DNA of 64,000 nt from Escherichia coli (lineage in GTDB: Bacteria > Pseudomonadota > Gammaproteobacteria > Enterobacterales > Enterobacteriaceae): assembly GCF_046105845.1 (NCBI RefSeq), contig NZ_CP151004.1; one strand, given 5' to 3'. Below, piece after piece: positions 1 to 50,929 of the stretch (position 1 is its first letter; every line of letters starts with the position of its first letter). The position numbers and the translations under genes are program-made. Below the pieces are notes generated by a model. It saw only the letters and a program-made list of their open reading frames with translations, made no database searches and was not told the DNA's origin.

Positions 1-922
1 GCGGTTTATCCACCGCCCACATGTGTGCTTCTGCCATCGTGTCCATCAGCACCTGCGCCGTGCGGGTGTAGTTTTCGAAGGCAAAGAGCGGGTCATCACT
101 CAGGCAGCGGGAACCCCAGAAGCGGAAACCGTCTTTACGCACAAGCGTGGTGACGTCGTTCTGGTTCAGCAGACCTGCATCGGTTGCCGGGTCCTGCAGA
201 TCCCAGAACACATCTGCAGAAATTCCGGTGACACCGTTCACGCCCACGTTGGACAGGCTTTTGTGCCATCCGGTCTGCTCGTCAATTTTGGCGCGCAGAC
301 CAAGCGCACGGGCGGTGGCATATGCCGTTGCTTCGGCATTCAGCACCGTGTCCCAGCCAGTAAAGTCAGGCCAGATCAGCATCCCTTCGCGCTGGCTGAA
401 GTTTTCGCGGTAAGTGATCGCCTCCTGCACTGTCTTGCAGCCATACGCTGACAGGTAAGCAAATCCACGCAGGCTTTGCGCCACGCTCAGCAACTCAGTC
501 GCAACGGCTTTGTTATCGTGACCTGGCACGCCGAGAATGCGCGGTTTAACGCCGAGCTGTGTCTGGGCAGATAACAGGGCTTTCATGCCTGTTTTTTTAC
601 CTTCAGCAGTCACTGCGCCGATGATATTGGTCGTGGTTTCTTCTTCCGTTTCACCCTGCGGCACACGCACAACAACGGTCACGGGTTTTGCCTGGTCAGA
701 GATGGCATCCAGCGAACGGGCCAACGTGCCGGACTCACCCGCTTTACCGCTGGCAGTCAGCACATCAGTGATCAGCACGGGTTTATTAAGAGGAAACATT
801 TTTGCATCGGCATCATCGCCCGTGCAGACCATGCCCACGATGGCGGTGCTCACCGTGGTAATGGATCGGGTACCTTCGTTGACTTCAACAACGCGCACCC
901 CGTGGTGGTAATCCTGAGCCAT
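1..922 (-). CDS. FI: Tail sheath protein (P2 gpFI-like), 3' end beyond window
   Basis: Minus-strand ORF with ATG at 920-922 preceded by AGGAGG; translation MAQDYHHGVRVVEVNEGTRSITTVSTAIVGMVCTGDDADA... resembles P2 FI N-terminus; no stop before position 1. Confidence 0.85.
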   Translation of the reverse strand, partial: MAQDYHHGVRVVEVNEGTRSITTVSTAIVGMVCTGDDADAKMFPLNKPVLITDVLTASGKAGESGTLARSLDAISDQAKPVTVVVRVPQGETEEETTTNIIGAVTAEGKKTGMKALLSAQTQLGVKPRILGVPGHDNKAVATELLSVAQSLRGFAYLSAYGCKTVQEAITYRENFSQREGMLIWPDFTGWDTVLNAEATAYATARALGLRAKIDEQTGWHKSLSNVGVNGVTGISADVFWDLQDPATDAGLLNQNDVTTLVRKDGFRFWGSRCLSDDPLFAFENYTRTAQVLMDTMAEAHMWAVDKP

Positions 923-1064
923 AGTGGCGAACCTCCTGATTGGATTAGGCTTCGCCCTATGTTGAAGTGATTGTGCCTGACAAACAGCTAAGCGCAGTTG
1001 TACCGTTATTCACACAAAATGACGGTATTTGTCTGCTTGCAGGGATAATCAAAATAATGCTGAT

Positions 1065-1631
1065 TCAGGGGGATTCATTACTCTTATTTGCCGGAAATTT
1101 TCTATAAATTGTGGAAACACCCACATCAAAAATCAGTGCAATACGCTGTCTTGATTCTCCGGCCTCGAGTAAGCGTCCAATCTGTGCCCACTGTTCGGTG
1201 GTCAACTTAGGACGGCGTCCACCTACTCTGCCTTTGTCGCGAGCTGCAGCAATCCCCGCCCTGGTACGTTCAACTATCAGTTCGCGTTCCATTTCAGCCA
1301 GGGCACCCATGACATGAAAAAAGAAACGGCCCATTGGGGTACTGGTATCAATACTGTCAGTCAGGCTTCGGAAATTCACGCCACGCTGGCGCAACTCTTC
1401 TATCAGCGTAACAAGATGCCGCATACTGCGTCCCAACCTGTCCAGCTTCCAGACAACCAGCGTGTCTCCTGCCGATAGTGTCCTGAGTAGTTTTTTCAGC
1501 CCCGGTCTGTCGGACTTAGTGCCACTGATTTTATCCTCAAAAATCCGCTCACATCCCGCGCAGTTCAGTGCATTACGTTGCAAATCGGTGTTCTGGTCAT
1601 TTGTTGACACGCGTACATAGCCAATAAGCAT
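1065..1631 (-). CDS. Serine DNA invertase (Gin/Cin/Pin/Hin family)
   Basis: Translation from internal start MLIGYVRVSTNDQNTDLQRNAL...; resolvase catalytic N-terminus with Ser in YVRVST motif and C-terminal HTH; lies next to the invertible segment. Confidence 0.9.
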   Translation of the reverse strand: MLIGYVRVSTNDQNTDLQRNALNCAGCERIFEDKISGTKSDRPGLKKLLRTLSAGDTLVVWKLDRLGRSMRHLVTLIEELRQRGVNFRSLTDSIDTSTPMGRFFFHVMGALAEMERELIVERTRAGIAAARDKGRVGGRRPKLTTEQWAQIGRLLEAGESRQRIALIFDVGVSTIYRKFPANKSNESP

Positions 1632-1658
1632 GATCAATCCCCTGAATAAAAACCGTGG

Positions 1659-2060
1659 ATGATGCCAGTTAGCCATTATCTCTGCATTTTCATAAACGTT
1701 GGTTTGGGAGAAGCGGCGAAAAGGGATGTGGGCACAGGAGAAAATCAGATACCGGATATGTCAGCCTGGAAAAGAAATCCGAGTTCTAATCGCTGGAGAA
1801 AATTGCCTGATGGAACCATCATTCAAATGGGAATATCAGCATCAGGACCATTAGGCTCACCTGTAAATATCACCCTGCCGATATCTTTCAGCAATACCAA
1901 TTATTGTGTTGTTGCATCGTACGATAATGCACGGTCAGGTGTGTCAACAATGGTTAGTTTTGCAGCATTGCCTGTTTCACCATCGCAATTTTCCCTGATG
2001 TCATCTGTGACTGAGCAAGGAATAAATCCTTTTGCTTACTGGATTGCTTTTGGAGATTGA
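1659..2060 (+). CDS. Alternative tail-fibre C-terminal variable segment, silent in the present orientation
   Basis: ORF whose residues NVGLGE (1695-1712) are encoded by the crossover site and match LGLGE at residue ~350 of gpH; inversion would fuse it in frame to the constant part of H. Confidence 0.6.
   Translation: MMPVSHYLCIFINVGLGEAAKRDVGTGENQIPDMSAWKRNPSSNRWRKLPDGTIIQMGISASGPLGSPVNITLPISFSNTNYCVVASYDNARSGVSTMVSFAALPVSPSQFSLMSSVTEQGINPFAYWIAFGD
1687..1712. repeat. gix/hix-like inversion crossover site (left)
   Basis: TTTTCATAAACG-TT-GGTTTGGGAGAA, two 12-bp half-sites around a 2-bp core as in Gin gix; 14 nt (1699-1712) are the exact reverse complement of 3537-3550. Confidence 0.65.
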
Positions 2061-2063
2061 TAA

Positions 2064-2483
2064 ATGGACAGATACTTCTATTCACAAAAAGAAAATGGTT
2101 TTTTTACCGATTTAAATAAAGCACCTTCAGATGCTGTTGAGATAACCACGGATGAATGGCTGTTACTACTGGATGGTCAGGATAATGGCATGAAAATAGT
2201 CAGCAATCAGGAGGGATATCCGGTTTTGATAGAGCAACCACCTTTATCAAAAGAAAACCTTATTGCATTGGTGGAGTTGAAAAAAAGAAAACTTATTAAT
2301 GAAGCCAACGAGCACATGAACAGCAGACAATGGCCAGGTAAAGCGGCTATTGGTCGTCTGAAAGGTGAGGAACTGGCGCAATATAATTTATGGCTGGATT
2401 ATCTGGACGCACTGGAACTGGTTGATCCCTCCAGTGCTCCAGATATTGAATGGCCTACGCCTCCGGCAGTTCAGGCCAGATGA
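2064..2483 (+). CDS. Alternative tail-fibre assembly chaperone (Tfa-like), partner of the silent fibre segment
   Basis: 139-aa ORF directly after the alternative fibre segment; C-terminus ...NLWLDYLDALELVDPSSAPDIEWPTPP parallels the active tfa C-terminus ...LDYIDAVTATDTSTAPDVIWPELP. Confidence 0.7.
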   Translation: MDRYFYSQKENGFFTDLNKAPSDAVEITTDEWLLLLDGQDNGMKIVSNQEGYPVLIEQPPLSKENLIALVELKKRKLINEANEHMNSRQWPGKAAIGRLKGEELAQYNLWLDYLDALELVDPSSAPDIEWPTPPAVQAR

Positions 2484-3057
2484 CATCCGGTGCGGTGCTG
2501 GTATCTGTTGCCGTCACCGCGTCAATGTAATCCAGCGCAGCGTTAAGTCGGGCGGTTTCTGCCTGCGTCAGATTCCGTCCGGCCTGTAATTTCAGTTGAA
2601 TCAGACTGATAGAAGCCATTGCTGTATCAATCAGCGACTGGCGCTGTGCTTCTGCTGCATCTACTACGGCGCTATGCTGTGCCTCGGTATCCGTCACCCA
2701 TTTCTCACCATCCCATTTATCGTATGGCGTTAACGGGGCGATAGTGGTTGTATTATCAGGGTAATCACCCGGTGCTGTGATTTCTTTTGATTCTCCTGTT
2801 TCGGTGCTAAAGACAATTTCACCGCGATGGTCTGGTACATATTCCCATGAGTTAAAATCTGCAGAGCGGCAGATTGCATAACCAGCTTTGTAGGTGCCTG
2901 GAGCATCTAAACAGGAATATGCCGGAATGCCGACACCAACAGCAAGATATTCAGTTGAAGCTGAAATATACTCCCGACTCATGACGTCAAAGTTATAAAC
3001 AGTAATTTCTCCTGCCATAGTGGCAATTAATTCACTGTTTAATTCTGCGTTATTCAT
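2455..3057 (-). CDS. G: Tail-fibre assembly protein (P2 gpG/Tfa-like)
   Basis: 200-aa ORF immediately downstream of H; Tfa-type C-terminal motif. Confidence 0.8.
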   Translation of the reverse strand: MNNAELNSELIATMAGEITVYNFDVMSREYISASTEYLAVGVGIPAYSCLDAPGTYKAGYAICRSADFNSWEYVPDHRGEIVFSTETGESKEITAPGDYPDNTTTIAPLTPYDKWDGEKWVTDTEAQHSAVVDAAEAQRQSLIDTAMASISLIQLKLQAGRNLTQAETARLNAALDYIDAVTATDTSTAPDVIWPELPEA

Positions 3058-4598
3058 TATGCAGCCCTCACAATATAGTTAAAAGCGACATTTCGTGGGC
3101 GTGTTTCATTCGCACCTGCAGGTTTAGTCGTTGCCGCAACAACACCACCCTCTGTAATAGCCGGGTTAGGAATTGGGTAATTATCGAAGTCAATGGCCGG
3201 AGACAGGGGCGTGATTTGTTTTAAAATCGTGGTGCCTGTAAAACTTTCCAGAGTCTGGTCGTTAGTTCGTGAAGTCCAGATTCCCCAATAGTGGTTATGA
3301 CTGACAATCGCACCGTCCTGAAGCGTTAATAATCCCCTTCCGTTATCCACTCCACGTCCGTCATCCCAGCCACGAATAAACTCACCGCGTAAATCAGGCA
3401 ATTTATTTGTCGGGTAAGCCTTTGCCAGTTCCGGGTATTCTTCAGCAGAAAAAGCCGCACCATTGCATTTCAGCCAGCCTGTCGGCGGAGTGGCGGAAGG
3501 CCACGGAACAGGCACACCAACAGGTAATGCAGAGCCTTCTCCCAAACCAAGGTATGCGAGAAGACCAGCTACATCCTTTCCACTCAAATTGGTAAGCGTA
3601 TTGTCCAGCGGTTGTTTACCTGCCAGCGCATTAAGCATTGTCGTGGCAAAGTTCGGATCATTCCCCAGTGCCGCCGCCAGTTCGTTCAGTGTATCCAATG
3701 CCGCGGGTGCAGAACCCACCATTGCTGCAATCGCTGATTTTACAAAAGCTGTAGTGGCAATCTGTGTATTGTTGACCGACTGTGCCGCAGTAGGTGCTGT
3801 TGGCGTTCCGGTGAGTGCCGGACTCGACAGTGGCGCTTTCAGTGCCAGCGCATTGTTAATGGTGGTACTGAATTTCGGATCATTGTTAATGGCTACGGCT
3901 ATTTCTTTCAGCGTGTCCAGCGTGGCTGGCGCACCATTAATAAGAGCCGTCAGTGCCGCCTGAACAAATGCGGTGGTCGCAAGCTGCGTGGTATTATTCC
4001 CCGCCGCTGGCGTTGGCGCTTTGGGGGTTCCGGTAAACGTTGGACTTTCTTTGGGTGCATACTGTGAATGCGGGTCCGGCGCGGCAAGATGTTTTGCCAT
4101 CAGGTCATCCACGTACACCTTCAGCTCCAGTGCCTTGTCATCCACATACTTGCGGGTTGCCAGCACTACTGCAGGGTCGATTTTCAGGGTGATATTGTCC
4201 GTGCTGCTGGTAATCAGCACCATGCGCACGGTCTGGGTGCGCCCGCTGCCTTCAGCCAGTTGCGGCTTATAGCTTTCCGGGCAGTTGCCCACGGCAATCA
4301 ATGCACCTGATTCATCAAACAGGCCCACTTCACGTATCCACCAACCGCCCTCGTTTTCAGGGATCACCTGTTCAGCAATAATCTGGCTGCTGTTCTGCGG
4401 GTCGATATAGAGCATATTCAGCGCAGCCCGGCGTTTCTCATTTACCAGTGCCGTCTGCTTTGCGTCCGGCGTTGGCAATGTTCCGCCGCCATCGCCGACC
4501 GCCATATGGGTAATTTTTAAAGGCACACCGAGCGCGGCGGCGCTGGCAAGTTTCGCCGCGCCAATATCCGTCAGCAGGGTATAAAATTTTGTGCTCAT
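3057..4598 (-). CDS. H: Tail fibre protein (P2 gpH-like) with a Mu S / T4 gp37-like C-terminus
   Basis: 513-aa ORF; N-terminus MSTKFYTLLTDIGAAKLA... typical of P2 H; internal repeats (TTQLATTAFVQAAL / NTQIATTAFVKSAI); C-terminus ...RPRNVAFNYIVRAA. Confidence 0.9.
   Translation of the reverse strand: MSTKFYTLLTDIGAAKLASAAALGVPLKITHMAVGDGGGTLPTPDAKQTALVNEKRRAALNMLYIDPQNSSQIIAEQVIPENEGGWWIREVGLFDESGALIAVGNCPESYKPQLAEGSGRTQTVRMVLITSSTDNITLKIDPAVVLATRKYVDDKALELKVYVDDLMAKHLAAPDPHSQYAPKESPTFTGTPKAPTPAAGNNTTQLATTAFVQAALTALINGAPATLDTLKEIAVAINNDPKFSTTINNALALKAPLSSPALTGTPTAPTAAQSVNNTQIATTAFVKSAIAAMVGSAPAALDTLNELAAALGNDPNFATTMLNALAGKQPLDNTLTNLSGKDVAGLLAYLGLGEGSALPVGVPVPWPSATPPTGWLKCNGAAFSAEEYPELAKAYPTNKLPDLRGEFIRGWDDGRGVDNGRGLLTLQDGAIVSHNHYWGIWTSRTNDQTLESFTGTTILKQITPLSPAIDFDNYPIPNPAITEGGVVAATTKPAGANETRPRNVAFNYIVRAA
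3537..3562. repeat. gix/hix-like inversion crossover site (right), inside gene H
   Basis: TTCTCCCAAACC-AA-GGTATGCGAGAA; inverted relative to the 1687-1712 site. Confidence 0.65.
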
Positions 4599-5200
4599 GG
4601 ATTCACTCTCATTGTGTCAATAACATGGACCGCCCCGCCTTCATGCGCGGTGCCACCGGAAATAATCGTTTCGTTGATATACGGATAGATCGTGATTTCT
4701 TCGCCAAGATAGCTGGCGGCTCCCACCCAATGCGGGCCGCTGGTCTGCAGATTGATGGACATGCCGATCATGTGACGGCTACATGGTTTGGCATCGCTTA
4801 TCAGTCGCTCAAGTTCCAGATAGGTATCTTCAGTGATGCCCTGGTCCTGCACGCCGATATCCAGGCGAAACGTGCCCGGTGCCTCTCCGGTCTGCCACCA
4901 CTCAATAATGCGGATCAGAAAGCCGAACGGCTCCACCACCCGCCGCACGGCACTGGTGGTCCCTTTATGCTGATGAATATAAAAAGCATCCTTCACTACC
5001 TGGCGTTTGACGCTTTCTGTCCAGCCCTCGTCCCAGCGATCCACAGAGAACGCCCAGGCGAGATAAGGCAGGAAACTGACCGGACAGGTTGCCGGATTCC
5101 ACAAGTCACGCAGCGGCACCTGCAGATCAGAAATCCCGCTGCAGGTTTGCGCCAGTCGGCGCTCCAGTGGCGTTGAACCCGGTGGCAGCAGACTATTCAT
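4595..5200 (-). CDS. I: Baseplate protein (P2 gpI-like)
   Basis: 201-aa ORF in conserved J-I-H order; ...WNPATCPVSFLPYLAWAFSVDRWDE... motif. Confidence 0.8.
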   Translation of the reverse strand: MNSLLPPGSTPLERRLAQTCSGISDLQVPLRDLWNPATCPVSFLPYLAWAFSVDRWDEGWTESVKRQVVKDAFYIHQHKGTTSAVRRVVEPFGFLIRIIEWWQTGEAPGTFRLDIGVQDQGITEDTYLELERLISDAKPCSRHMIGMSINLQTSGPHWVGAASYLGEEITIYPYINETIISGGTAHEGGAVHVIDTMRVNP

Positions 5201-6101
5201 CCGTTCCTCCGTTGGTTACGCTCCACTGCGTACATGATGCCGCCTGTGTTTTGTTCAGGACCACATCCGCCAGAGGAGAAGCCAGCTCCACACGCTGCAC
5301 ACCCTCAACATGCAGGGCGGCAAAGATGGCGCTACGGCGAATATCCCGACCAAGACGCGTCTGACTGGCGATGTACTTCTGCAGGCTGGCTTTTGCCGCT
5401 GCCATTACCGGCTCTGCTTCCGGTCCCGGATAGAGAAAAATGGTGGCTTCCACGCGATACGGGATGATTTCTGCGCTGCGAACCGTCAGACGGTCAGCCA
5501 CCGGGCGGAAGTTCTCACTGTTCAGAGCTTTTTCCACCACGTCCAGCAGGTCTTTTTCTGCAGTTCCATCGCCTTCGCGGCTAAGGACAGTCAGCACCAC
5601 CTCTGCAGGTGCCGGGCTGGTTGCACTGGCATCCGCCACCCGACCGTCGGCGCTTCGGGCATGAAATTCATAAGCTGCAGTTGGCCCCGCAACAGAAAGC
5701 CCTTCAAAGGCTGCAGGCACACGCAGGCGTAACGCTTCATCGCTTTCCATCACAGCCGCAATGGGTGGCACAGCGTCATTATCAGCAGGCGTCACCGTCA
5801 GGCGTTTCACGTTGTAGTTGGCAGCGAGCTGGTCAAGATCGCCGCCCATCGCGTAAGCCACCATCACAGCCTGCGCGGCTTCGTTAATGCGCTGGCGCAG
5901 AAGCAACTCACGGTAAGCGTTCTCCTGCAGCAATTTGGTGACGGGTTCAGATTCCAGTTCCAGCGTGCGGATCACTGCTTCCTGCTCATCTTTCGGATGA
6001 AGCGCAACAAATTCGGCCTTGCGTTCGGCAAGCAGCGTCTCAAAGTCCGGCACATCCACAATCTGCGGCGCAGGCAACTGCGAAAGGTCAATCACTGCCA
6101 T
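5193..6101 (-). CDS. J: Baseplate protein (P2 gpJ-like)
   Basis: Start placed at internal Met (MAVIDLSQLPAP...) by comparison with P2 J; ORF track gives 5193..6140. Confidence 0.85.
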   Translation of the reverse strand: MAVIDLSQLPAPQIVDVPDFETLLAERKAEFVALHPKDEQEAVIRTLELESEPVTKLLQENAYRELLLRQRINEAAQAVMVAYAMGGDLDQLAANYNVKRLTVTPADNDAVPPIAAVMESDEALRLRVPAAFEGLSVAGPTAAYEFHARSADGRVADASATSPAPAEVVLTVLSREGDGTAEKDLLDVVEKALNSENFRPVADRLTVRSAEIIPYRVEATIFLYPGPEAEPVMAAAKASLQKYIASQTRLGRDIRRSAIFAALHVEGVQRVELASPLADVVLNKTQAASCTQWSVTNGGTDE

Positions 6102-6447
6102 TCTCTGCTCCTGTTGATACGGAAAGGGAAACAGGCACACCGTTATTACGCCGCCCGGTCAGCTCCACCACCATTGAACCGTCAAAATTGCTGTTAATGG
6201 TGATGGAATCCAGCGTCAGCCGTGGCTCCCAGCGACTCAGCGCCACATACACTGCCGACATGACCTGCAGGCGTAATGCCGGATTTTGTGGCTGGTCTAT
6301 CAGTGCCGACAGCAGGGAACCATATTCCCGACGGGCAATGCGGCTACCCTGCGGCGTCAGCAAAATGTCCCGCACCGACTGGCGCAGATGGTCAATATCA
6401 GTAATGGCTTTACCGCTGGTATTGTTCATCCCGCTATAAAGCGTCAT
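6088..6447 (-). CDS. W: Baseplate wedge protein (P2 gpW / gp25-like)
   Basis: 119-aa ORF MTLYSGMNNTSGKAITDIDHLRQSVRDILLTPQGSRIARREYGS... Confidence 0.85.
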   Translation of the reverse strand: MTLYSGMNNTSGKAITDIDHLRQSVRDILLTPQGSRIARREYGSLLSALIDQPQNPALRLQVMSAVYVALSRWEPRLTLDSITINSNFDGSMVVELTGRRNNGVPVSLSVSTGAENGSD

Positions 6448-15862: not shown

Positions 15863-17287
15863 TTACTTACGTGTTTCAACTATATTCAGCCCCTTATAAA
15901 GGCTTTGATGGATATATACAGAACCAGTATTTGGCAACATTAAATCAGCATCTTCACATCGGAATCTAGCCGTACCGGAATTGCCCAACCGGACACCAAT
16001 CACAGAAGCATTAAATAGAGTTTTCATCAATTCACGAGAAGTATAGCGCTTACAAAGGTCAGGCGCTTTCTCTTCAATCTTACTGATGAATTCTTCTGTA
16101 GAATTATATCTATGCTGCGTCTGACGTAAAGATTCCAATAGCTCACCAAAATGAGGGTAGAGCCTTTTGTATTCTTGTTTTAAGTCCTCAACTTTCCAAG
16201 CGCTGTACCGTTCTTCAGCTATTCTAATTATATCCTTTTTTATTTCAGAAGCATTAGCATCACAGCGTTTTTGGCATTCTTGCAAAAACTGAATAACTTC
16301 TCTTGGGCGCAAAAATGTGCGCTTCACCAAATAGTTAAACGGTGAAATACTCCCTCTCATTTCACCTTCCTCAAAAATATCATCTATAGTTATATTTTCC
16401 GGCAATCTGGCGTTCACCATATCTTTCAACAACTCTGGTGTCCAGATTATTTCTTCTTCAATTGCTCGGTGTTTATCTTTATCATCAAATTCCAGCCCTT
16501 GATAAATATCAGAGCGTAAAAATGTTACAATATGAATACCTTTGGCTCTAGTATCAGAATAACTATCATTAATATCTTTTGTTGCCTTCAACAAGCCAAT
16601 CAAAAGGCTTTTGGCATCATCCGATCCATCCCAAGAATCATCTAATCGATCAGTGGCAATTAGCACCCCAATATCTGTACAAATTTCTTTAAGCTCGTCA
16701 AGGATGATTTTTATTATTTGAGGTGTCAATGGTGCTTGCGAAGCATCCTTATTAAACCCCACAGCATATCCGAAAGCCTCAAAATTGAATGAACTTAATC
16801 CCGAGAGTAACTTCCTTGCAGTTCCCAAAGTAGTTGGCGATATACCACCATAGTTATCAGAAACAAATTTTTTAATTCTAGCAAGGGCCTCCCGAGGTCT
16901 TTTCTCTGAAAATTGCCTACCTGACCTAATAATTTCTGCCGCAGCCTCAACAGCTATTGCAAATTTCCAAGCATTACAATGTGCCTGTTCGGGTAACAAC
17001 CCTTGCTCTTGATATTGTTTTAATGCTCCCCAAGCATACTGGTCTGGGGTCATGACATTTACGATAACGTCCTGCCCATATTTTGCTCTTACCAACCTTG
17101 GGAGTTGGGTAAAGATGGATGATTTCCCAGCCCCCTTTCTTCCAAGAAAATGGGCACTATAGAAACTCAGAGCTTGCTCAACTTGAGGAGTATTGATGAA
17201 ATAATCAGCCAACCTTCTATCAGCTTCAGCATCGACAGTACCAAAGTTGAGTCCCTTAACTGTAAGGCCTAACGCATCTAACCGCAC
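15863..17287 (-). CDS. P-loop NTPase, divergent KAP-like (candidate anti-phage or accessory gene)
   Basis: 474-aa ORF with GTG start and AAGGA RBS; Walker A FLGRKGAGKSSIF; Walker B-like VLIATDRLDDSW; visibly AT-rich compared with flanking late genes; lies between the cos-like site and Q. Confidence 0.75.
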   Translation of the reverse strand: MRLDALGLTVKGLNFGTVDAEADRRLADYFINTPQVEQALSFYSAHFLGRKGAGKSSIFTQLPRLVRAKYGQDVIVNVMTPDQYAWGALKQYQEQGLLPEQAHCNAWKFAIAVEAAAEIIRSGRQFSEKRPREALARIKKFVSDNYGGISPTTLGTARKLLSGLSSFNFEAFGYAVGFNKDASQAPLTPQIIKIILDELKEICTDIGVLIATDRLDDSWDGSDDAKSLLIGLLKATKDINDSYSDTRAKGIHIVTFLRSDIYQGLEFDDKDKHRAIEEEIIWTPELLKDMVNARLPENITIDDIFEEGEMRGSISPFNYLVKRTFLRPREVIQFLQECQKRCDANASEIKKDIIRIAEERYSAWKVEDLKQEYKRLYPHFGELLESLRQTQHRYNSTEEFISKIEEKAPDLCKRYTSRELMKTLFNASVIGVRLGNSGTARFRCEDADLMLPNTGSVYIHQSLYKGLNIVETRK

Positions 17288-23020: not shown

Positions 23021-23214
23021 TGGTTCCCCCGTTTTTTCGTTGATAGTTCTGCCAGCAATTCATCTTGTGAACGGCACGGATGCCAGCGTTTACCATCCTC
23101 ACCCATGATCCAGCCGTGACCGTAGTGCATTGCCGGACTTTGTTTTACCAGCAGCGATGCAAATGATGGTTCTTTCGTCAGCATAAGCACCTCACAGCAA
23201 ACCGAATGAAGCAC
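22984..23214 (-). CDS. Hypothetical phage protein
   Basis: 76-aa ORF overlapping neighbours by a few codons; start uncertain. Confidence 0.4.
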   Translation of the reverse strand: MLHSVCCEVLMLTKEPSFASLLVKQSPAMHYGHGWIMGEDGKRWHPCRSQDELLAELSTKKRGNQWLLKALRRLFH

Positions 23215-23701
23215 CGAGGCCAGTCACGGTATCAACTGCACTCGCCATCGCAGGATTAGCCTGTAAACGGGCCTGCAATGAAACAGCAGCCAGCGCCATC
23301 AGTCGTGTAACAGAGTTAATGCTGCTGATCGCATCACGACGGCCTGCACTGGTTTTTACATCGCCAGAAACCGCACCTGCCGCGACACGCCCTATCTCTG
23401 CAGTTGCACTCATGACGTAATGCGGCAGTTTCTCTTTTGCCACCTCATTAATCGGTACACATGGCAGGCAGTGAATCTGTGCCAGAAAGCCATCTACCAG
23501 CGTTGAATCTTCAGTCAGATCGGTAAGCAGCCAGATTTCTGGCGCATTGAGCTGATGCGGTTGATCTGGGTTGAGTTTGTTTCGCAGAGTCTGGACATTC
23601 ATTCCTGCACGTTCTGCCAGCTTCGCCATATTGTGACGAAGTGCAAAAGCTCTACAGGCTTCATCAAAATGCGGGTGTTTGGAAACTTGGTAATCAAACA
23701 T
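23192..23701 (-). CDS. cII: Lysogeny establishment regulator CII (186 type)
   Basis: [50 protein letters not shown]... resembles 186 CII. Confidence 0.85.
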
Positions 23702-23733
23702 GGTCAATGCCTCTGATGTATTTCAGAATCGAA

Positions 23734-23955: not shown

Positions 23956-24080
23956 GATGCAACATTCCTCGTTTAATGTTGATTAATCAGGACGAATACG
24001 GATCGTTTGTATTTTGTGAACATCATAAACATACGATCGCATAATGAAATCGTCAAGACAAAAGTTCACTTGGAGTGACC
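23956..24080. promoter_or_regulatory. Lysis-lysogeny switch region (face-to-face pR/pL type, inferred)
   Basis: ~120-bp AT-rich interval between divergent apl and cI with short repeats (ATACGGATCG / ATACGATCGC). Confidence 0.45.
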
Positions 24081-24650
24081 ATGAATTTGGAGAAAGGCGG
24101 ACGAGGCGCTATAGAGCGCATGGTAGAAGCATATGGCTTCAAGACTCGACAGGCGTTGTGCGATCACTTAGGAATCTCTAAAAGTACTCTCGCCACACGC
24201 TATATGCGTGACTCATTCCCTGCTGAATGGGTAATCCAGTGCGCACTTGAAACGGGCGCCTCGCTTAACTGGCTCACGACCGGACATGGTTCAAAGCAAA
24301 CTTCAGGTAATACAAATACTATGGAAGTCGTTAAATATGTATTATCTGATGGAACCTTGCAGGAAGATGGTTTTTATATTTTCGATAAAGAATTTCTACC
24401 ATCTACGCTCAAAAATCCGTTTGTAATCACCGATAACAATTCCGTTTTTATTTGCGATAAAGAGTTTAACGATATTCGTGACGGCAAATGGGTAATAAGT
24501 ATTGATGCCGAAGTAACAATCCGCGATATCACTCGTTTACCTGGTGGAAGAATCTTAGTTGAAGGTGGAAATAGGGCTTTCGAATGTAAAAAAGAAGAAA
24601 TCGAAATTATTGGAAAAATTATAAGCATAACAGTTAAGTACTTTGAGTAA
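24081..24650 (+). CDS. cI: Immunity repressor CI (186 type)
   Basis: ATG at 24081 after a GGAG RBS; ...IERMVEAYGFKTRQALCDHLGISKSTLATRYMRD..CALETGASLNWLTTG...ITRLPGG...FECK... Confidence 0.85.
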   Translation: MNLEKGGRGAIERMVEAYGFKTRQALCDHLGISKSTLATRYMRDSFPAEWVIQCALETGASLNWLTTGHGSKQTSGNTNTMEVVKYVLSDGTLQEDGFYIFDKEFLPSTLKNPFVITDNNSVFICDKEFNDIRDGKWVISIDAEVTIRDITRLPGGRILVEGGNRAFECKKEEIEIIGKIISITVKYFE

Positions 24651-24700: not shown

Positions 24701-25624
24701 ATGTCAACTCAAAAATTAAAATTTAGCCATATCAAAAACGATCTGAAAGCAATAGTTATGCAGAATCGTGGAGGGCAAAAAGTTATTGAGCGTATACTCC
24801 TAGCCTATGGCTTCAAGTCACGACAGGCATTATGTAATCATCTAGGTATTTCCCAAAGTACTATGGCCAACAGATATGCACGTAATACCTTTCCTGCAGA
24901 TTGGGTTGTTATATGTTCCATAGAAACAGGAGCATCAATTGAATGGTTAGTTCTTGGTTCAGATACTGCTCCTTCATCAGAGCAATATTCTGAAAAACAT
25001 GCCGTTAATGGCCTTTGCAATGAAGTATACATTCCCACTATAAAGTTCGATAATGAAAAACTCATGAATTTTAACCGAGGGGGTAAGGCAACAATAGAAC
25101 GAATTGTCGAGGCTTACGGTTACAAAACGCGCCAAGCATTAGCTGATCACCTAGGTATTTCAAAAAGCACATTAGCCACACGATACATGCGTGACATTTT
25201 TCCTGCAGACTGGGTTTTGCAGTGTGCAATAGAAACGGGCCATTCTATTGAATGGATTTCATTTGGTACAGGAGAAATGAAAAACACAAAAAATAAAGAT
25301 ACTTTAACATTAGTGAAAAAAGTATTAATCAATGGCAAGTTAATAAATGATGGCTCATATTTATTTGACCCATGCTTTCTACCTTCCAATTTAAAAAATG
25401 CATTCGTAGTATCTACCGAAGACTCTGAATTAATATGTGAAATGGGTTTTAAAGATGTACATGATGGTAAGTGGCTAGTAAATATTGATGGAGAGAATTC
25501 ATTTAGAATGATAACTCGACTACCTAAAGGACGAGTTTATATTTCATCCCAAAATCACTCTTTTGAATGTTCGCTTACAGACATTGAGTTTATTGCAAAA
25601 GTTATTATAAGTTGTTTACATTAA
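24701..25624 (+). CDS. CI paralogue with tandem duplicated N-terminal HTH domains plus a CI-like C-terminal domain
   Basis: 307 aa; residues ~22-90 and ~125-190 each resemble the CI N-domain (the second carries ISKSTLATRYMRD, identical to CI); C-terminal FECSLTDIEF region parallels the CI C-domain. Confidence 0.8.
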   Translation: MSTQKLKFSHIKNDLKAIVMQNRGGQKVIERILLAYGFKSRQALCNHLGISQSTMANRYARNTFPADWVVICSIETGASIEWLVLGSDTAPSSEQYSEKHAVNGLCNEVYIPTIKFDNEKLMNFNRGGKATIERIVEAYGYKTRQALADHLGISKSTLATRYMRDIFPADWVLQCAIETGHSIEWISFGTGEMKNTKNKDTLTLVKKVLINGKLINDGSYLFDPCFLPSNLKNAFVVSTEDSELICEMGFKDVHDGKWLVNIDGENSFRMITRLPKGRVYISSQNHSFECSLTDIEFIAKVIISCLH

Positions 25625-25649: not shown

Positions 25650-27167
25650 GTGAAATGTGGTGATTGTAATTGGAACTGGGATGAAGAAACTACCTTTATA
25701 TTAGACGACGAAGAGGAAATTCTTTCCAAAGACAAACTTAATCGGAGACACTATGCAGAATATCTATATTTTTATCTTAAGGAAAAGGGGCAAAAGAACA
25801 ACACGGTAATCAACCTTAATGCAGAATGGGGAGCTGGTAAAAGTTTTTTCATAAAGAGATTTTATAACTCAATAAAAGATGCACACCCATGCGTTTACAT
25901 TGATGCCTGGAAGCAAGACTTTTCTGATGATGCATTTTTAACCCTTTTTTCTTCTTTGTCACAACAATTGCAAACATATGCAGGAAAACTTGATGCTCGA
26001 TTGATACAAAGCGGCCATGCTATCGGACGCTTTACAAAAGGTGTTCTACCTGAAATCATATCTGGCCTAATCAAGACTTATGCAGGAGTAGATAACGTAG
26101 GTGATATAGCCAAAGAAGCCTCATTAATAATGCTGAAGGAACACCAGGAAAAACTGAAGAGCATTAAGGTATTAAAAAAAGAACTAACGTTATGGTCTAG
26201 GTTGGCATATGAAAATAGTTTTTCATGTCCTATATTTATCTTTATAGATGAATTAGACAGATGCAGGCCAGATTATGCAATTTCTCTTTTAGAGATTGTT
26301 AAACATATATTCGATATTAAAAATTTTGTCTTTATTATTGCTACTGACACAGATCAATTACAACATTCAATCAAGAATGTTTACGGTAATGATTTTTCCG
26401 CAAATGACTATTTAGGCCGTTTTTTTCATAGAAGATTTACTTTAAAACAACCTGAACTTAAAGATTTAATTAATGGTGTTATTGGTGATTATATTGGTAC
26501 CGATTTTGAAAATATCACATCAAAAACATACCCACTAACAGCAACATTAGAAGACTTTTCAATAAATATTTCCAACGTATTTGAAGCATTTGGGTTAAAT
26601 CTAAGAGACTCAATCCGAAATACTGAAAGGTTAATAGACATTCTTAAATCTGATTTAGTCAAAAAGAAAGTAGATTATATTTTTATAATTTCGCTAATGA
26701 TTATATATGATAAGGATCGTCAAATTATAGATGGACTAATTGGTCGAAGAAATGCAGCACAACGTTTCACTGATTCGATAAAGCAAAGCTCCAATTTAAA
26801 AGGTGTTTCTCAAGCCATCCTTGAATTAAATCTTGATACAAATCAGCAAAGAATAGGTGTCAATTATATCTATAGAACGGCGAGCAGTAGATTATTCATC
26901 TCACAGATCGAGCCCAAAATAAATTTAACATTAATAAATTACTTAGATGTTGCATTGTATTTTATTAATAATATAAACATGCTTAAATCAAGTATAAAAA
27001 ACAATGGGCAAAATTCACTAATGATTATATCTCAACAAGGCCCTATTGATGGTGATACAGCTATAAAGTATTTGCAAGGAGCCCTTATAGAGAATGGTCT
27101 GAATACATCTTTTTATGCCTTACATAATTACATTGAATTAATTGAACTGGCCACATCATTTGATTAA
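25650..27167 (+). CDS. KAP-family P-loop NTPase
   Basis: 505 aa, GTG start with GGAGA RBS; NLNAEWGAGKSFF (Walker A), IDAWKQDFSDDAFLTLF, IFIFIDELDRCRPDYAISLLEIVKHIF (Walker B), all hallmark KAP motifs; AT-rich. Confidence 0.85.
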   Translation: MKCGDCNWNWDEETTFILDDEEEILSKDKLNRRHYAEYLYFYLKEKGQKNNTVINLNAEWGAGKSFFIKRFYNSIKDAHPCVYIDAWKQDFSDDAFLTLFSSLSQQLQTYAGKLDARLIQSGHAIGRFTKGVLPEIISGLIKTYAGVDNVGDIAKEASLIMLKEHQEKLKSIKVLKKELTLWSRLAYENSFSCPIFIFIDELDRCRPDYAISLLEIVKHIFDIKNFVFIIATDTDQLQHSIKNVYGNDFSANDYLGRFFHRRFTLKQPELKDLINGVIGDYIGTDFENITSKTYPLTATLEDFSINISNVFEAFGLNLRDSIRNTERLIDILKSDLVKKKVDYIFIISLMIIYDKDRQIIDGLIGRRNAAQRFTDSIKQSSNLKGVSQAILELNLDTNQQRIGVNYIYRTASSRLFISQIEPKINLTLINYLDVALYFINNINMLKSSIKNNGQNSLMIISQQGPIDGDTAIKYLQGALIENGLNTSFYALHNYIELIELATSFD

Positions 27168-29019: not shown

Positions 29020-29290
29020 AATGTTACCGTAATATGTGAGTATCCATCGACTAGACACTAAGCAAAAAAGCTCCCGAAGGAGCCTTCATTTTCACTTTCT
29101 TAAATCTAACGACAGACGGCTAACATTTAAGTATTGTGAAATATTATCAAATGTAATCATCATTGATTTACAAAAGATACATTTTGCCCCGAAAGGATTC
29201 CTGTCAGAAACATCAAAAGATGATGTTCTATACTGAGAACCATGGCAACACGGGCATCTAAAGTGAATATGGTTTGTAATATTTTCTACC

Positions 29291-29506
29291 TCAAAGTGCC
29301 ACTACATGAACAGCCGCGGGGCCTTTAGGTCCGTTCTCAATACCAAATTCGACTTCCTGATTCTCAGTTAACGTTTTGAAATCGTTGCTCTGAATAACTG
29401 AGAAATGGACAAACACATCTTTGCTACCATCTTTCGGCGTGATGAAACCAAAACCTTTTTCAGGGTTAAACCATTTCACTAAACCAGTCATTTTGTTAGA
29501 CATCAT
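29291..29506 (-). CDS. Cold-shock protein (CspA family)
   Basis: [23 protein letters not shown]...VFVHFS, RNP motifs. Confidence 0.85.
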
Positions 29507-29866
29507 TATTACCTTTTGAAGAAGTTAGCCCTTGGGCAGAATGGTCCGAAAAAAAATATCAGAGAGAAAAACCAACAAGGAGATCTCAAGAGGTACAAAT
29601 AATAAAATTATAACAATGACTGCTTCAGATAATTTTGTAACAAACCAGAACACCATTAACGCATGATTAACCAACCATAGCAAGGATTACTTTTGTAAAG
29701 AAAAACACACGAATGAAACAATAGCTTTATTTATTAATAAAACGTGTCATTCTGTCTAATGACCTTTTATCTTACCCTTAAGATTTCAAGGATTTTGACT
29801 CATGGAAGAGTCCTTTTTATTTAAATTTCACATTCAGCGCTAAAAATAATCCGATTTAATATTAAT

Positions 29867-32376: not shown

Positions 32377-32739
32377 TTGATTTTATTCGTAACAAGTATT
32401 TTTTATATTTTAATAACATATTTAAAGCAGATAATAAAAAACCCGCCTGAGCGGGTTTAATATTGTGGTACTTTTTGTGGGAGTCATCCACTTACGCACT
32501 TTGTTTTGCTATGCCAGCAGTTAGCTTCTGCTGTAAAACTATTCATGCAGCAAACCTGCACTTCACCACAATGGTTAGCATACTTTTCCTGATTAAGTTA
32601 TTGCCAAATATGCTGGCCATTGTTTCATGTATTGGACCTCCTTACTATTTATTAAAGAGATCCAATATTCACCACTCTGTCTGTATCTCCACTCAGGCAT
32701 CAGCCTTCTTCGTTATCGTATACAGACAAACTATGAATT

Positions 32740-32955
32740 TTAATCAGTAATTATGACATTTGCTGCTGCAGGACCTTTAGCACCACTCTCTACAGAGAAG
32801 GTAACCTTTTGACCTTCAAATAAGGTTCGAAAATTATCATTCTGAATCGCAGAAAAATGCACAAACACATCTTTACTACCATCAACAGGAGAAATAAAGC
32901 CAAAACCTTTATCAGCGTTAAACCATTTTACTAAACCAGTCATTTTATTTGACAT
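32740..32955 (-). CDS. Cold-shock protein (CspA/B/G family)
   Basis: [23 protein letters not shown]...VFVHFSAI. Confidence 0.85.
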
Positions 32956-33255
32956 TCTACATTCCTTAACTTGAGCCTTTCGGCATAAATGGCTTGTATA
33001 ACAGAAACGACTTCGTACTTAATTGGAGAGACTCAAAGAAGGAATAAGTGAATAACACCTGAAATGAGAACTGCTTTAGTAAACTACTTCGTATATCGTC
33101 TGTTCTTCAAACCGACGCAATCATTAACGCATAGTTGAACATATGAAGCAATGTTTATTTTAGACATCCAGCCATCTTCAACCCCATCAAAAAACTATAG
33201 CTTTCTTCAGGAACGTGTGTATAGTGCGCCCAGTTATCAGTATTAAGGAATTTTT

Positions 33256-38718: not shown

Positions 38719-39547
38719 GACGATGCCCTCCGCTGATATTCAGGAGACGGTGAATATGAAAATTAGCCTTATCCGCCAGACGAATACGTTCAGCCTGCAA
38801 GTTAAGAAGGGTTTCTACCAAAACCTGATGCGCCTGCGGATCCGAAAGAGTTACCTTGCGCAGAGCACGTAGTGCAGTTGTTACATAACTGAGTTTATGT
38901 AAGTCTTCATCATTCAGACGAGTGAGGGCTGGGACAGTAGCCATGATGGCAGCCTCCGATAACAGTGAATTACCTTCACCACCGGAAACGCCAATTTCGC
39001 TGGTGGTGAACTGAACGGGGTTGGCGTAACCGGCGTTATCGGAAACCGGCGCACCTTTCGGTGCCCCCGTCCAGCCCACCATAATTTGGGTGTGCACAGA
39101 CACAGACGATAAAAAAGACGCTGGCGCGTCATATATCGCCGATAACATTTCCAGGACGCCAATCCCGTCACCCGCTTTATAAGGTGCCTGAACAGTGTAA
39201 CGTCCCGGAATGGCAGAATCAATGTGCTGGTGGTCCTTCACACTCAACAAAATCACGCCTGAATTTCCACAAAGGACTAAAGCACTCATGCGGGTAGTCT
39301 TTGCGAAGATAGATAACGCGCTGTGTTTCTGGTTCCCAACGAATAACATGGACATAAAGCCCTCTTCCGTCACGAAACCAGCGGTTAAGTTCCCGCACAA
39401 CTCGCCCCCCACAGTCAGGTAAAGTTCTCTGTGGTTACTTACAGCCAGGTGATTTGGTAATCTGCATTCATGCCGTAACAACAGGTGTTCAGCGACACTG
39501 ACCACCAGCTGTTGCGACAAACGGTTATTTGCCGTTAAACTGTTCAT
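38711..39547 (-). CDS. Hypothetical phage early protein
   Basis: 278-aa ORF in the cro-proximal early-right operon. Confidence 0.5.
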   Translation of the reverse strand: MNSLTANNRLSQQLVVSVAEHLLLRHECRLPNHLAVSNHRELYLTVGGELCGNLTAGFVTEEGFMSMLFVGNQKHSALSIFAKTTRMSALVLCGNSGVILLSVKDHQHIDSAIPGRYTVQAPYKAGDGIGVLEMLSAIYDAPASFLSSVSVHTQIMVGWTGAPKGAPVSDNAGYANPVQFTTSEIGVSGGEGNSLLSEAAIMATVPALTRLNDEDLHKLSYVTTALRALRKVTLSDPQAHQVLVETLLNLQAERIRLADKANFHIHRLLNISGGHRHA

Positions 39548-50606: not shown

Positions 50607-50693
50607 GCGAAGGTGGCGGAATTGGTAGACGCGCTAGCTTCAGGTGTTAGTGTCCTTACGGACGTGGGGGTTCAAGTCCCCCCCCTCGCACCA
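50607..50693 (+). tRNA. leuQ: tRNA-Leu (anticodon CAG)
   Basis: GCGAAGGTGGCGGAATTGGTAGACGCG...CTTCAGGTG...GGTTCAAGTCCCCCCCCTCGCACCA; long variable arm; first of three tandem copies. Confidence 0.95.
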
Positions 50694-50721
50694 AAAACCA
50701 CGTTGATATTGCTCGCACTGG

Positions 50722-50808
50722 GCGAAGGTGGCGGAATTGGTAGACGCGCTAGCTTCAGGTGTTAGTGTTCTTACGGACGTGGGGGTTCAAGTCCCCCCCC
50801 TCGCACCA
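50722..50808 (+). tRNA. leuP: tRNA-Leu (anticodon CAG)
   Basis: Second tandem copy, one substitution in the variable arm (GTGTTC vs GTGTCC). Confidence 0.95.
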
Positions 50809-50842
50809 AACGAGGCGATATCAAAAAAAGTAAGATGACTGT

Positions 50843-50929
50843 GCGAAGGTGGCGGAATTGGTAGACGCGCTAGCTTCAGGTGTTAGTGTCCTTACGGACG
50901 TGGGGGTTCAAGTCCCCCCCCTCGCACCA
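50843..50929 (+). tRNA. leuV: tRNA-Leu (anticodon CAG)
   Basis: Third tandem copy, identical to the first. Confidence 0.95.

Follow-up and report, generated by a model that had tools for sequence, protein, structure and literature searches.

The prophage locus studied here raises the question of whether a small serine recombinase gene, lying beside two convergent chaperone genes and a silent plus-strand ORF, belongs to a switch that exchanges the end of the tail-fibre protein H, and whether such a switch turns. A first-pass annotation of the window (the whole 64-kb stretch of Escherichia coli DNA that was analysed) had proposed a host-range switch of the Mu G / P1 C type. We are highly confident that the locus gives a P2/186-like E. 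coli prophage a host-range switch with two states, driven by an invertase: the parts are in place, the reading frames fit, and inversion occurs naturally at exactly these sites in near-identical prophages, among which both orientations are found.

The host element is a P2/186-like prophage of E. coli with an apparently complete tail module. This module encodes a Baseplate J-like protein, and the product of the upstream gene I matched TIGR01634 (tail_P2_I; E 2e-57). The genes follow the order I, H, chaperone, [inverted chaperone and tip], invertase, FI, which is that of the P2-like (Peduoviridae) tail-fibre module (J - I - H - G(chaperone) - [cargo] - FI). Of the tail sheath gene FI, the 5' part lies at 1-922 on the minus strand and runs past the left end of the window; its ATG was read directly from the sequence, and in a 98%-identical locus (L001) the PGAP feature "phage tail sheath protein" ends at the equivalent of position 922. 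The P2 reference carries fun(Z) between G and FI, and gene order here agrees with it in placing the invertase and its segment at the P2 Z/fun position, as had been annotated. The ORFs are likewise those described before, namely an invertase gene, H (3057-4598, minus strand), a convergent pair of chaperone genes and, on the plus strand, a tip that is silent. A consensus scan for promoters and terminators over 850-3700 gave counts no higher than those of shuffled sequences, and identified neither an invertase promoter nor an operon terminator in that interval.

The recombinase gene (1065-1631, minus strand) encodes a DNA invertase of the Gin/Pin/Fin type with 188 residues. Its product matched phrog_125 ("DNA invertase") with an E value of 1e-100, and residues 1-184 aligned end to end with the Mu Gin structures 3UJ3 and 4M6F (E 6e-93); NCBIfam gave no model at its cut-off for the invertase or for the fibre parts. 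The protein has the architecture of small serine recombinases (about 190 residues, with an N-terminal catalytic domain containing a nucleophilic serine and conserved Arg/Asp motifs, and a C-terminal helix-turn-helix domain), retains the nucleophile as Ser9, and shares with Gin the motifs YVRVSTNDQ, DRPG and VVWKLDRLGRS. Identity was 86% to e14 PinE, 85% to Fels-2 Fin, 77% to P7 Cin and 74% to Mu Gin. It is known that contacts with Fis and the enhancer involve basic residues at Hin positions 47, 48 and 51 together with Gln151, Arg154 and Leu155, these three being located in helix 1 of the DNA-binding domain (PMC3798978). On the Gin alignment, the equivalents of Hin K47, R48 and K51 are K46, K47 and R50, and helix 1 reads Q-I-G-R-L in the window protein and Q-A-G-R-L in Gin, the pattern Q-x-G-R-L being conserved, so that the residue set specific to Fis-dependent invertases is present. 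The serine invertase of the first-pass annotation is thus intact, but its start had to be moved from 1676 to the ATG at 1631, as PGAP calls it in 98%-identical prophages (L001, L003).

The sites on which this enzyme would act are two inverted, imperfectly palindromic 26-bp sequences of the gix/cix type with identical central dinucleotides, as expected for its class. The left one, beside the invertase gene (1687-1712), consists of an outer half (1687-1698), the core TT (1699-1700) and an inner half (1701-1712), and reads TTTTCATAAACG-TT-GGTTTGGGAGAA. The right one, inside H (3537-3562), consists of an inner half (3537-3548), the core AA (3549-3550, TT on the other strand) and an outer half (3551-3562), and reads TTCTCCCAAACC-AA-GGTATGCGAGAA. 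A repeat search returned them as inverted arms at 1687-1713 and 3536-3562 (27 nt, 81% complementary), and 21 of the 26 positions match after one site is reverse-complemented. Careful alignment confirmed the gix-like repeat as real, a point on which the first-pass annotation had staked its proposal. The right site codes for LAYLGLGE in H, with the crossover inside the Leu codon CTT, which agrees with the earlier placement of the crossover at the LGLGE codons.

Taken alone, an inverted repeat of such quality is unremarkable, since 12 other pairs occur in 7 kb, and the two sites might be a chance repeat beside a resolvase-type recombinase with another role (e.g. cointegrate resolution), with no inversion of fibre genes. 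Searching with the bare 12-bp palindromic core AAACCNNGGTTT, one mismatch allowed, matched only these two sites; as about 2.3 chance matches are expected in 64 kb, we did not take this as evidence on its own and used the half-site consensus GGTTTnnGAnAA instead. Both sites scored 17 of 18 against it, no other 26-mer in the 64-kb window reached 13 of 18, and none of 200 first-order Markov simulations produced a site at 16 of 18 or above; the scan also returned exactly the annotated Mu gix sites, P7 cixL and two sites in Fels-2. The score is therefore far above chance. Moreover, each site coincides in frame with a tip boundary, and the enzyme, with the 74-86% identity to proven invertases given above, is only distantly related to resolvases. 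Together with the exact inversion seen in relatives (see below), which effectively refutes it, this leaves the chance-repeat explanation with practically no probability.

The same scan bears on the number of states. Some P2-like loci of E. coli carry three inverted repeats and produce four variants (PMC4272514). We considered a shufflon-like system of this kind, in which three or more crossover sites would allow the fibre more than two forms; the second P2-like prophage in EPEC E2348/69 is an example. We rejected this reading as very improbable, because the window contains no third site even at 13 of 18 and the locus does not qualify as a multiple-inversion system; in addition, the segment holds just two pairs of tip and chaperone. 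The absence of a third site is also the reason for which we describe the switch as two-state.

The invertible segment spans 1699-3550 (1852 bp), an interval that forms an exact reverse-complement block in two strain pairs. H itself is an uninterrupted ORF of 513 aa (3057-4598, as above), in which residues 1-150 match Pfam Phage_tail_fib (PF12571). Its N-terminal and shaft part (3551-4598, minus strand), common to both fibre forms, is 84% identical to that of Fels-2 H. Tandem Repeats Finder reported nothing in H; a duplication in the shaft is visible only at the protein level. The variable C-terminus now expressed (tip A; 3057-3548, minus strand, 163 aa) carries a Tail Collar domain (Collar, PF07484, H residues 361-408), is 58% identical to the C-terminus of e14 StfE, and corresponds to the fibre tip that the first-pass annotation took to be expressed in this orientation. 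It is followed, at the position of P2 G, by its expressed TfaE-like chaperone (2455-3057, minus strand, 200 aa; phrog_105, E 9e-96), which is 87% identical to e14 TfaE. On the opposite strand lies the silent alternative end of H (tip B; 1701-2060, plus strand, 119 aa), with a Gp53-like_C domain (Pfam PF21882, E 2e-13) and matches to the tail-fibre families phrog_2557 and phrog_1396. Its silent TfaP-like chaperone (2064-2483, plus strand, 139 aa) matched phrog_188 ("tail fiber assembly protein", E 3e-51) and is 53% identical to e14 TfaP. The 3' ends of the two chaperone genes overlap by 29 nt, and comparison of tip A with tip B detected no similarity. Among the 50,697 phage records searched, the best identity for tip B was 51%, and near-identical copies occur in some E. 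coli prophages.

Both silent ORFs are intact, neither being broken by a stop or a frameshift. The segment of about 1.85 kb with a silent pair had been correctly recognised; however, the first 14 codons of the ORF annotated at 1659-2060 fall outside it, and the tip begins at 1701. When 1699-3550 was flipped in silico, the resulting H' stayed in frame, ended in ...LGLGEAAKRDVG...AFGD* and was followed by the second chaperone gene, so that frame and tip-chaperone order are kept and inversion swaps the H C-terminus together with its chaperone, as proposed. In agreement with this, PGAP annotates a fused "phage tail protein" of 469 aa in flipped records.

Among complete E. coli genomes carrying at least 80% of the locus, 30 had the segment in the orientation of the window and 27 had it flipped. 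In strain 13TMH22, the chromosome and a 36-kb circular phage record (an excised circle) display opposite orientations, and so do two assemblies of ATCC 8739. Within each pair, the one difference is that the segment is present as its exact reverse complement, with breakpoints inside the predicted sites; the widest extent of the inverted block corresponds to 1699-3550 of the window and the narrowest to 1714-3535. The left breakpoints of both strains lie within the equivalent of 1699-1713, and a polymorphic base of the inner half moves with the segment in the same-strain pairs. The segment thus actually inverts in prophages 95-98% identical to that of the window. The first-pass annotation had allowed that its proposal would fail with a single orientation and a dead invertase; both orientations are public in near-identical prophages, and the invertase is intact.

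From these relatives we infer that the copy in the window flips as well. A frozen switch, with all parts present but with changes private to the right outer half-site or to the invertase that stop inversion and leave the plus-strand pair as a silent relic, seems unlikely to us. It could be argued from the differences between the window and the two demonstrably flipping relatives, which are a C instead of a T at 3557, in the right outer half-site, and four to five invertase residues (R29, I127, D132, E146, K183 and S184 are involved). However, none of these touches a consensus site position or a conserved catalytic motif: 3557 is an "n" position of the consensus, variable among gix, cix and Fels-2 sites, and the catalytic and Fis-contact motifs are the same as in Gin. 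Furthermore, the undamaged state of the silent tip and chaperone ORFs is not what would be expected after long disuse.

Invertases of this class work with a recombinational enhancer in cis, which holds two Fis sites and lies within the 5' part of the invertase gene. A degenerate Fis-motif scan of the 5' region of the invertase gene gave no clear pair of sites either in the window or in Mu, and the enhancer was placed instead by homology to P7, in whose record the cin enhancer is annotated at cin nt 19-86. The homologous stretch, a putative Fis-dependent recombinational enhancer equivalent (1546-1613, minus strand; invertase nt 19-86), gives a gap-free alignment with it and does not differ at all from the stretch in ATCC 8739, where the segment has flipped between assemblies. 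On this basis, Fis binding and dependence on the enhancer may be presumed here.

In the mechanism that we propose, dimers of the invertase would occupy both inverted 26-bp sites, that inside H and that immediately upstream of the invertase gene. With host Fis bound to the enhancer in the 5' part of this gene, cleavage at the central TT/AA, subunit rotation and rejoining would then invert 1699-3550. The late operon would read H from a fixed promoter, so that the constant N-terminal part of 349 residues would end in either of two tips. At present this is tip A with its collar domain, followed by the TfaE-like chaperone; after inversion it would be tip B with its gp53-like C domain, followed by the TfaP-like chaperone. 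A lysogen population would therefore release two kinds of virions that differ in their receptor-binding tips. The two tips would recognise different receptors and probably reach two sets of hosts.

There is nothing out of the ordinary in this device, which has been described in phages before, and published cases include invertases located at the Z/fun hotspot of P2; the finding raises no new question on inversion systems. It has practical consequences nonetheless. The ORFs labelled "gp53-like" and "tail fiber assembly" on the plus strand should be annotated as the alternative end of H and not as orphan genes, and it is legitimate for two assemblies of one strain to disagree at this segment. 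In prophage induction, fibre host-range engineering and tailocin work, lysates are to be expected as mixtures of two fibre types. We consider it possible, though rather doubtful, that tip B recognises a receptor that has been assigned to no phage fibre, or that the invertase acts in trans on the segments of co-resident prophages. For Salmonella LT2, action in trans by a second invertase is reported in the reference list of PMC4272514; action of this kind, if true here, would couple the host-range states of prophages sharing one cell.

With regard to known systems, Mu G/Gin and P1/P7 C/Cin represent the same mechanism class. They have 26-bp sites of the same half-site consensus, one of them within about 60-70 bp of an invertase gene that follows it and carries the enhancer at its 5' end. 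As here, crossover takes place within the fibre gene, and a constant N-terminus is thereby combined with alternative C-termini that have their own chaperones. In contrast, their phage backbones differ and their segments are longer than the 1.85 kb of the present one, at about 3 kb for Mu and about 4 kb for the P7 record. The Mu allele set was also tried as a match for the cassette and discarded, as a BLASTP comparison with Mu S, S', U and U' returned no match for any tip or chaperone. The P segment of e14 in E. coli K-12, whose inversion has been demonstrated experimentally (PMC4272514), is homologous to the present cassette part for part, with tip B 30% identical to StfP and the same tail-to-tail overlap of 29 nt between chaperone genes. 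However, e14 is a defective lambdoid element in which stfE is a pseudogene, whereas here the cassette is fused to a P2-type H shaft. In the P2-like Salmonella phage Fels-2, the locus (H/G - G'/H' - fin - FI) is laid out in the gene order given above, from I to FI, and likewise has two consensus sites, of which one falls within H. It has, however, other tip and chaperone alleles (only tfaB, the chaperone gene of tip B, resembles Fels-2 G', at 32%), the core dinucleotide TC/GA instead of TT/AA, and chaperone genes that do not overlap. Further counterparts are other invertases at the Z/fun hotspot and the inverting P2-like prophages of EPEC E2348/69; in P2-like prophages of EPEC, sequencing and PCR revealed an inversion of about 1.8 kb, and a two-variant inversion is documented for a P2-like E. 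coli prophage (PMC4272514). From these the present locus shows no substantive difference, and what it has of its own is the pairing of its tip alleles.

The window opens with 9 kb of a P2/186-like prophage's tail module, read on the minus strand. The module comprises baseplate gene J (5193-6140), a P2-type gene I (4595-5200; TIGR01634, E 2e-57), the tail-fibre gene H (3057-4598; Phage_tail_fib N-terminal domain plus Collar domain), a gene for a 200-aa tail-fibre assembly chaperone (2455-3057) and, beyond a serine recombinase, the 5' end of FI, the tail sheath gene, whose ATG is at 922 and which leaves the window. The same gene set is annotated by PGAP at a 98%-identical E. coli locus. Since fun(Z), together with a terminator and the pF promoter, lies between G and FI in the reference record of P2 itself, the first-pass annotation was correct in placing the invertase and its segment at the Z/fun position.

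The rest of the window showed several further features. A CII-like activator at 23192-23707 marks the control region of the prophage as 186-like, not P2-like. Two adjoining plus-strand ORFs (24075-24650 and 24701-25624) match the phage CI-type repressor family phrog_4; in the second (307 aa) the matched stretches are repeated, which suggests a duplicated or fused repressor. Between these genes and the integrase lies a 505-aa ORF (25650-27167, plus strand) that hit PDC-S20, a candidate defence family in PADLOC, at E 9e-78, with weaker matches to PifA and QatA; it appears to be defence cargo occupying the third P2-like hotspot. Where P2 has its old/tin hotspot, between gpA and Q, a 474-aa ORF (15863-17287, minus strand; phrog_13260) adjoins the portal gene and had no match in PADLOC. 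Rfam hits on the right-hand side of the P2-like integrase comprise a pair of cspA-type thermoregulator leaders and, side by side, C4 antisense and isrK RNAs (29245-29650, 32677-33116, 38999-39187); they suggest that a second prophage or prophage remnant lies there. Three tRNA-Leu(CAG) genes stand in tandem at 50607-50929 (plus strand), and the host is E. coli, with opgB-lgoT-lgoD-lgoR-tsr (57.5-63.8 kb) sharing 99.2% identity with chromosomes of that species.

The top pair in a search for inverted repeats had arms at 1687-1713 and 3536-3562 (27 nt, 81% complementary). Length and identity alone are not remarkable: twelve other inverted pairs were found in 7 kb, and chance would supply the 12-bp core, one mismatch allowed, about 2.3 times in the window. 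What singles out the two sites is their match to the invertase-site consensus, not the quality of the repeat. The 26-bp left site reads TTTTCATAAACG-TT-GGTTTGGGAGAA and the right one TTCTCCCAAACC-AA-GGTATGCGAGAA; after reverse complementation of the latter, 21 of the 26 positions agree, the central dinucleotides included. With GGTTTnnGAnAA as the half-site consensus, applied from the centre towards either end (18 positions scored), both sites reached 17/18 and no other 26-mer in the 64-kb window scored even 13/18, while 200 first-order Markov simulations gave an expected number of 0 at 16 or more and 0.04 at 15 or more. The consensus was partly drawn with these very sites in view, but this is offset by its recovery of independently annotated ones: applied to known loci, it returned both annotated Mu gix sites, the annotated P7 cixL, two Fels-2 sites and nothing more. 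The inverted sites proposed at 1687-1712 and 3537-3562 are thus real. As no third site is present in the 64-kb window, the switch is a two-state one.

The right site, inside H, codes for LAYLGLGE, and the crossover dinucleotide falls in the CTT Leu codon directly before GLGE, where the crossover had been predicted. The plus-strand codons of the left site include ATA AAC GTT GGT TTG GGA GAA (INVGLGE). H is now uninterrupted with tip A (163 aa, Tail Collar domain), in keeping with the claim that this fibre tip is in the expressed orientation. In silico reverse complementation of 1699-3550 yielded an uninterrupted H' of 469 aa, in which the same 349-residue N-terminal part continues into GLGEAAKRDVGTGENQ...AFGD and the stop, and a 139-aa chaperone gene starts three bases later. 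Exactly this fused 469-aa H' is annotated by PGAP in flipped public records. The proposed swap of both the H C-terminus and its chaperone is supported. The silent pair (1659-2060 and 2064-2483) stands as the alternative tip and chaperone, except that 1659-2060 begins with 14 codons from outside the segment, which do not belong to the tip. Tip B, the silent one (119 aa, Gp53-like_C domain), had no detectable similarity to tip A, and its closest relative among the phage records searched was at 51%. The two chaperones have only their C-terminal ~70 residues in common (36% identity). The convergent chaperone genes share their last 29 nt (2455-2483) tail to tail, both C-termini being coded by the same DNA on opposite strands. 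In the H shaft (3590-4050, minus strand; residues ~185-335) a ~74-aa unit occurs twice, with 60% identity between the copies; the single shaft copy of Fels-2 H aligns to both, and the window H therefore has one shaft repeat more.

We searched complete E. coli genomes with window positions 900-4700, as is and flipped in silico. At least 80% of the locus was present in the window orientation in 30 genomes and flipped in 27. Both orientations occurred within single strains: in 13TMH22, the chromosome has the window orientation and a circular record in that assembly (36,172 bp) the flipped one; in ATCC 8739, CP033020 has the former and NC_010468 and CP022959 the latter. One record pair per strain (CP033020 and NC_010468 for ATCC 8739) was compared over 6.8 kb. 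In both pairs the flanks were identical and the middle block was an exact reverse complement with zero mismatches. In window coordinates, the inverted block is at largest 1699-3550 and at smallest 1714-3535, so that the exchange took place within the predicted sites, in their inner halves. As expected, the base that ends the inner half-site, polymorphic in ATCC 8739, travels with the segment there. These relatives share 95-98% identity with the window. The left outer half-site is the same as that of ATCC 8739; in the right one, a single position that is not part of the consensus sets the window apart from both relatives (C vs T at 3557). By analogy, the window's own copy would be expected to flip. 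The circular 13TMH22 record was deposited as a plasmid, p13TMH22-1; across the 6.8 kb compared, it differs from the chromosomal prophage by the flipped segment only, and it is probably the excised phage genome, not a plasmid.

The longest invertase ORF (1065-1676) carries a 15-codon N-terminal extension. It encodes a serine invertase, as proposed, but its true start is the ATG at 1631 annotated in relatives (188 aa). Residues 1-184 align at E 6e-93 to Mu Gin as crystallised; the protein has the nucleophilic Ser9 and shares YVRVSTNDQ, DRPG and VVWKLDRLGRS unchanged with Gin. Identity was 86% to e14 PinE, 85% to Fels-2 Fin, 77% to P7 Cin and 74% to Mu Gin, and 4-5 non-motif residues differ from the 13TMH22 and ATCC 8739 invertases. 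Residues specific to Fis/enhancer-dependent invertases are basic ones at Hin 47, 48 and 51, plus Gln151, Arg154 and Leu155 (McLean et al., PMC3798978); their equivalents in the Gin alignment, K46, K47, R50 and Q-I-G-R-L, are conserved. In the P7 record, cin nt 19-86 are marked as the cin enhancer, and the homologous window stretch, 1546-1613, aligns to it without gaps and has every base as in ATCC 8739. Because a crude Fis-motif scan was uninformative, we infer a recombinational enhancer at 1546-1613 from homology only; the switch would be Fis and enhancer dependent. On every feature testable in silico, the switch is a member of the Gin/Pin/Fin family.

Taken together, the earlier observation is confirmed and its interpretation as a Mu G/P1 C-type switch supported, with small coordinate corrections. 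This is a system of a well-known kind at a well-known place. GenBank phages with 94%-identical loci and an annotated 'DNA invertase' include Escherichia phage 500465-1 and Klebsiella phage KP12. By sequencing, Goldberg et al. saw inversion both in e14 and in two EPEC E2348/69 prophages of the P2-like type; PCR confirmed it for the e14 locus and for the P2-like locus with three repeats (four variants), and the other P2-like prophage has a two-variant switch (PMC4272514). The order and spacing of site, ~55 bp and invertase start are those of Mu gixR-gin, the gene order I, H, G, G', H', invertase, FI is that of the Salmonella P2-like phage Fels-2, and each part of the cassette has its counterpart in the e14 P segment, down to the 29 nt by which tfaP and tfaE overlap tail to tail.
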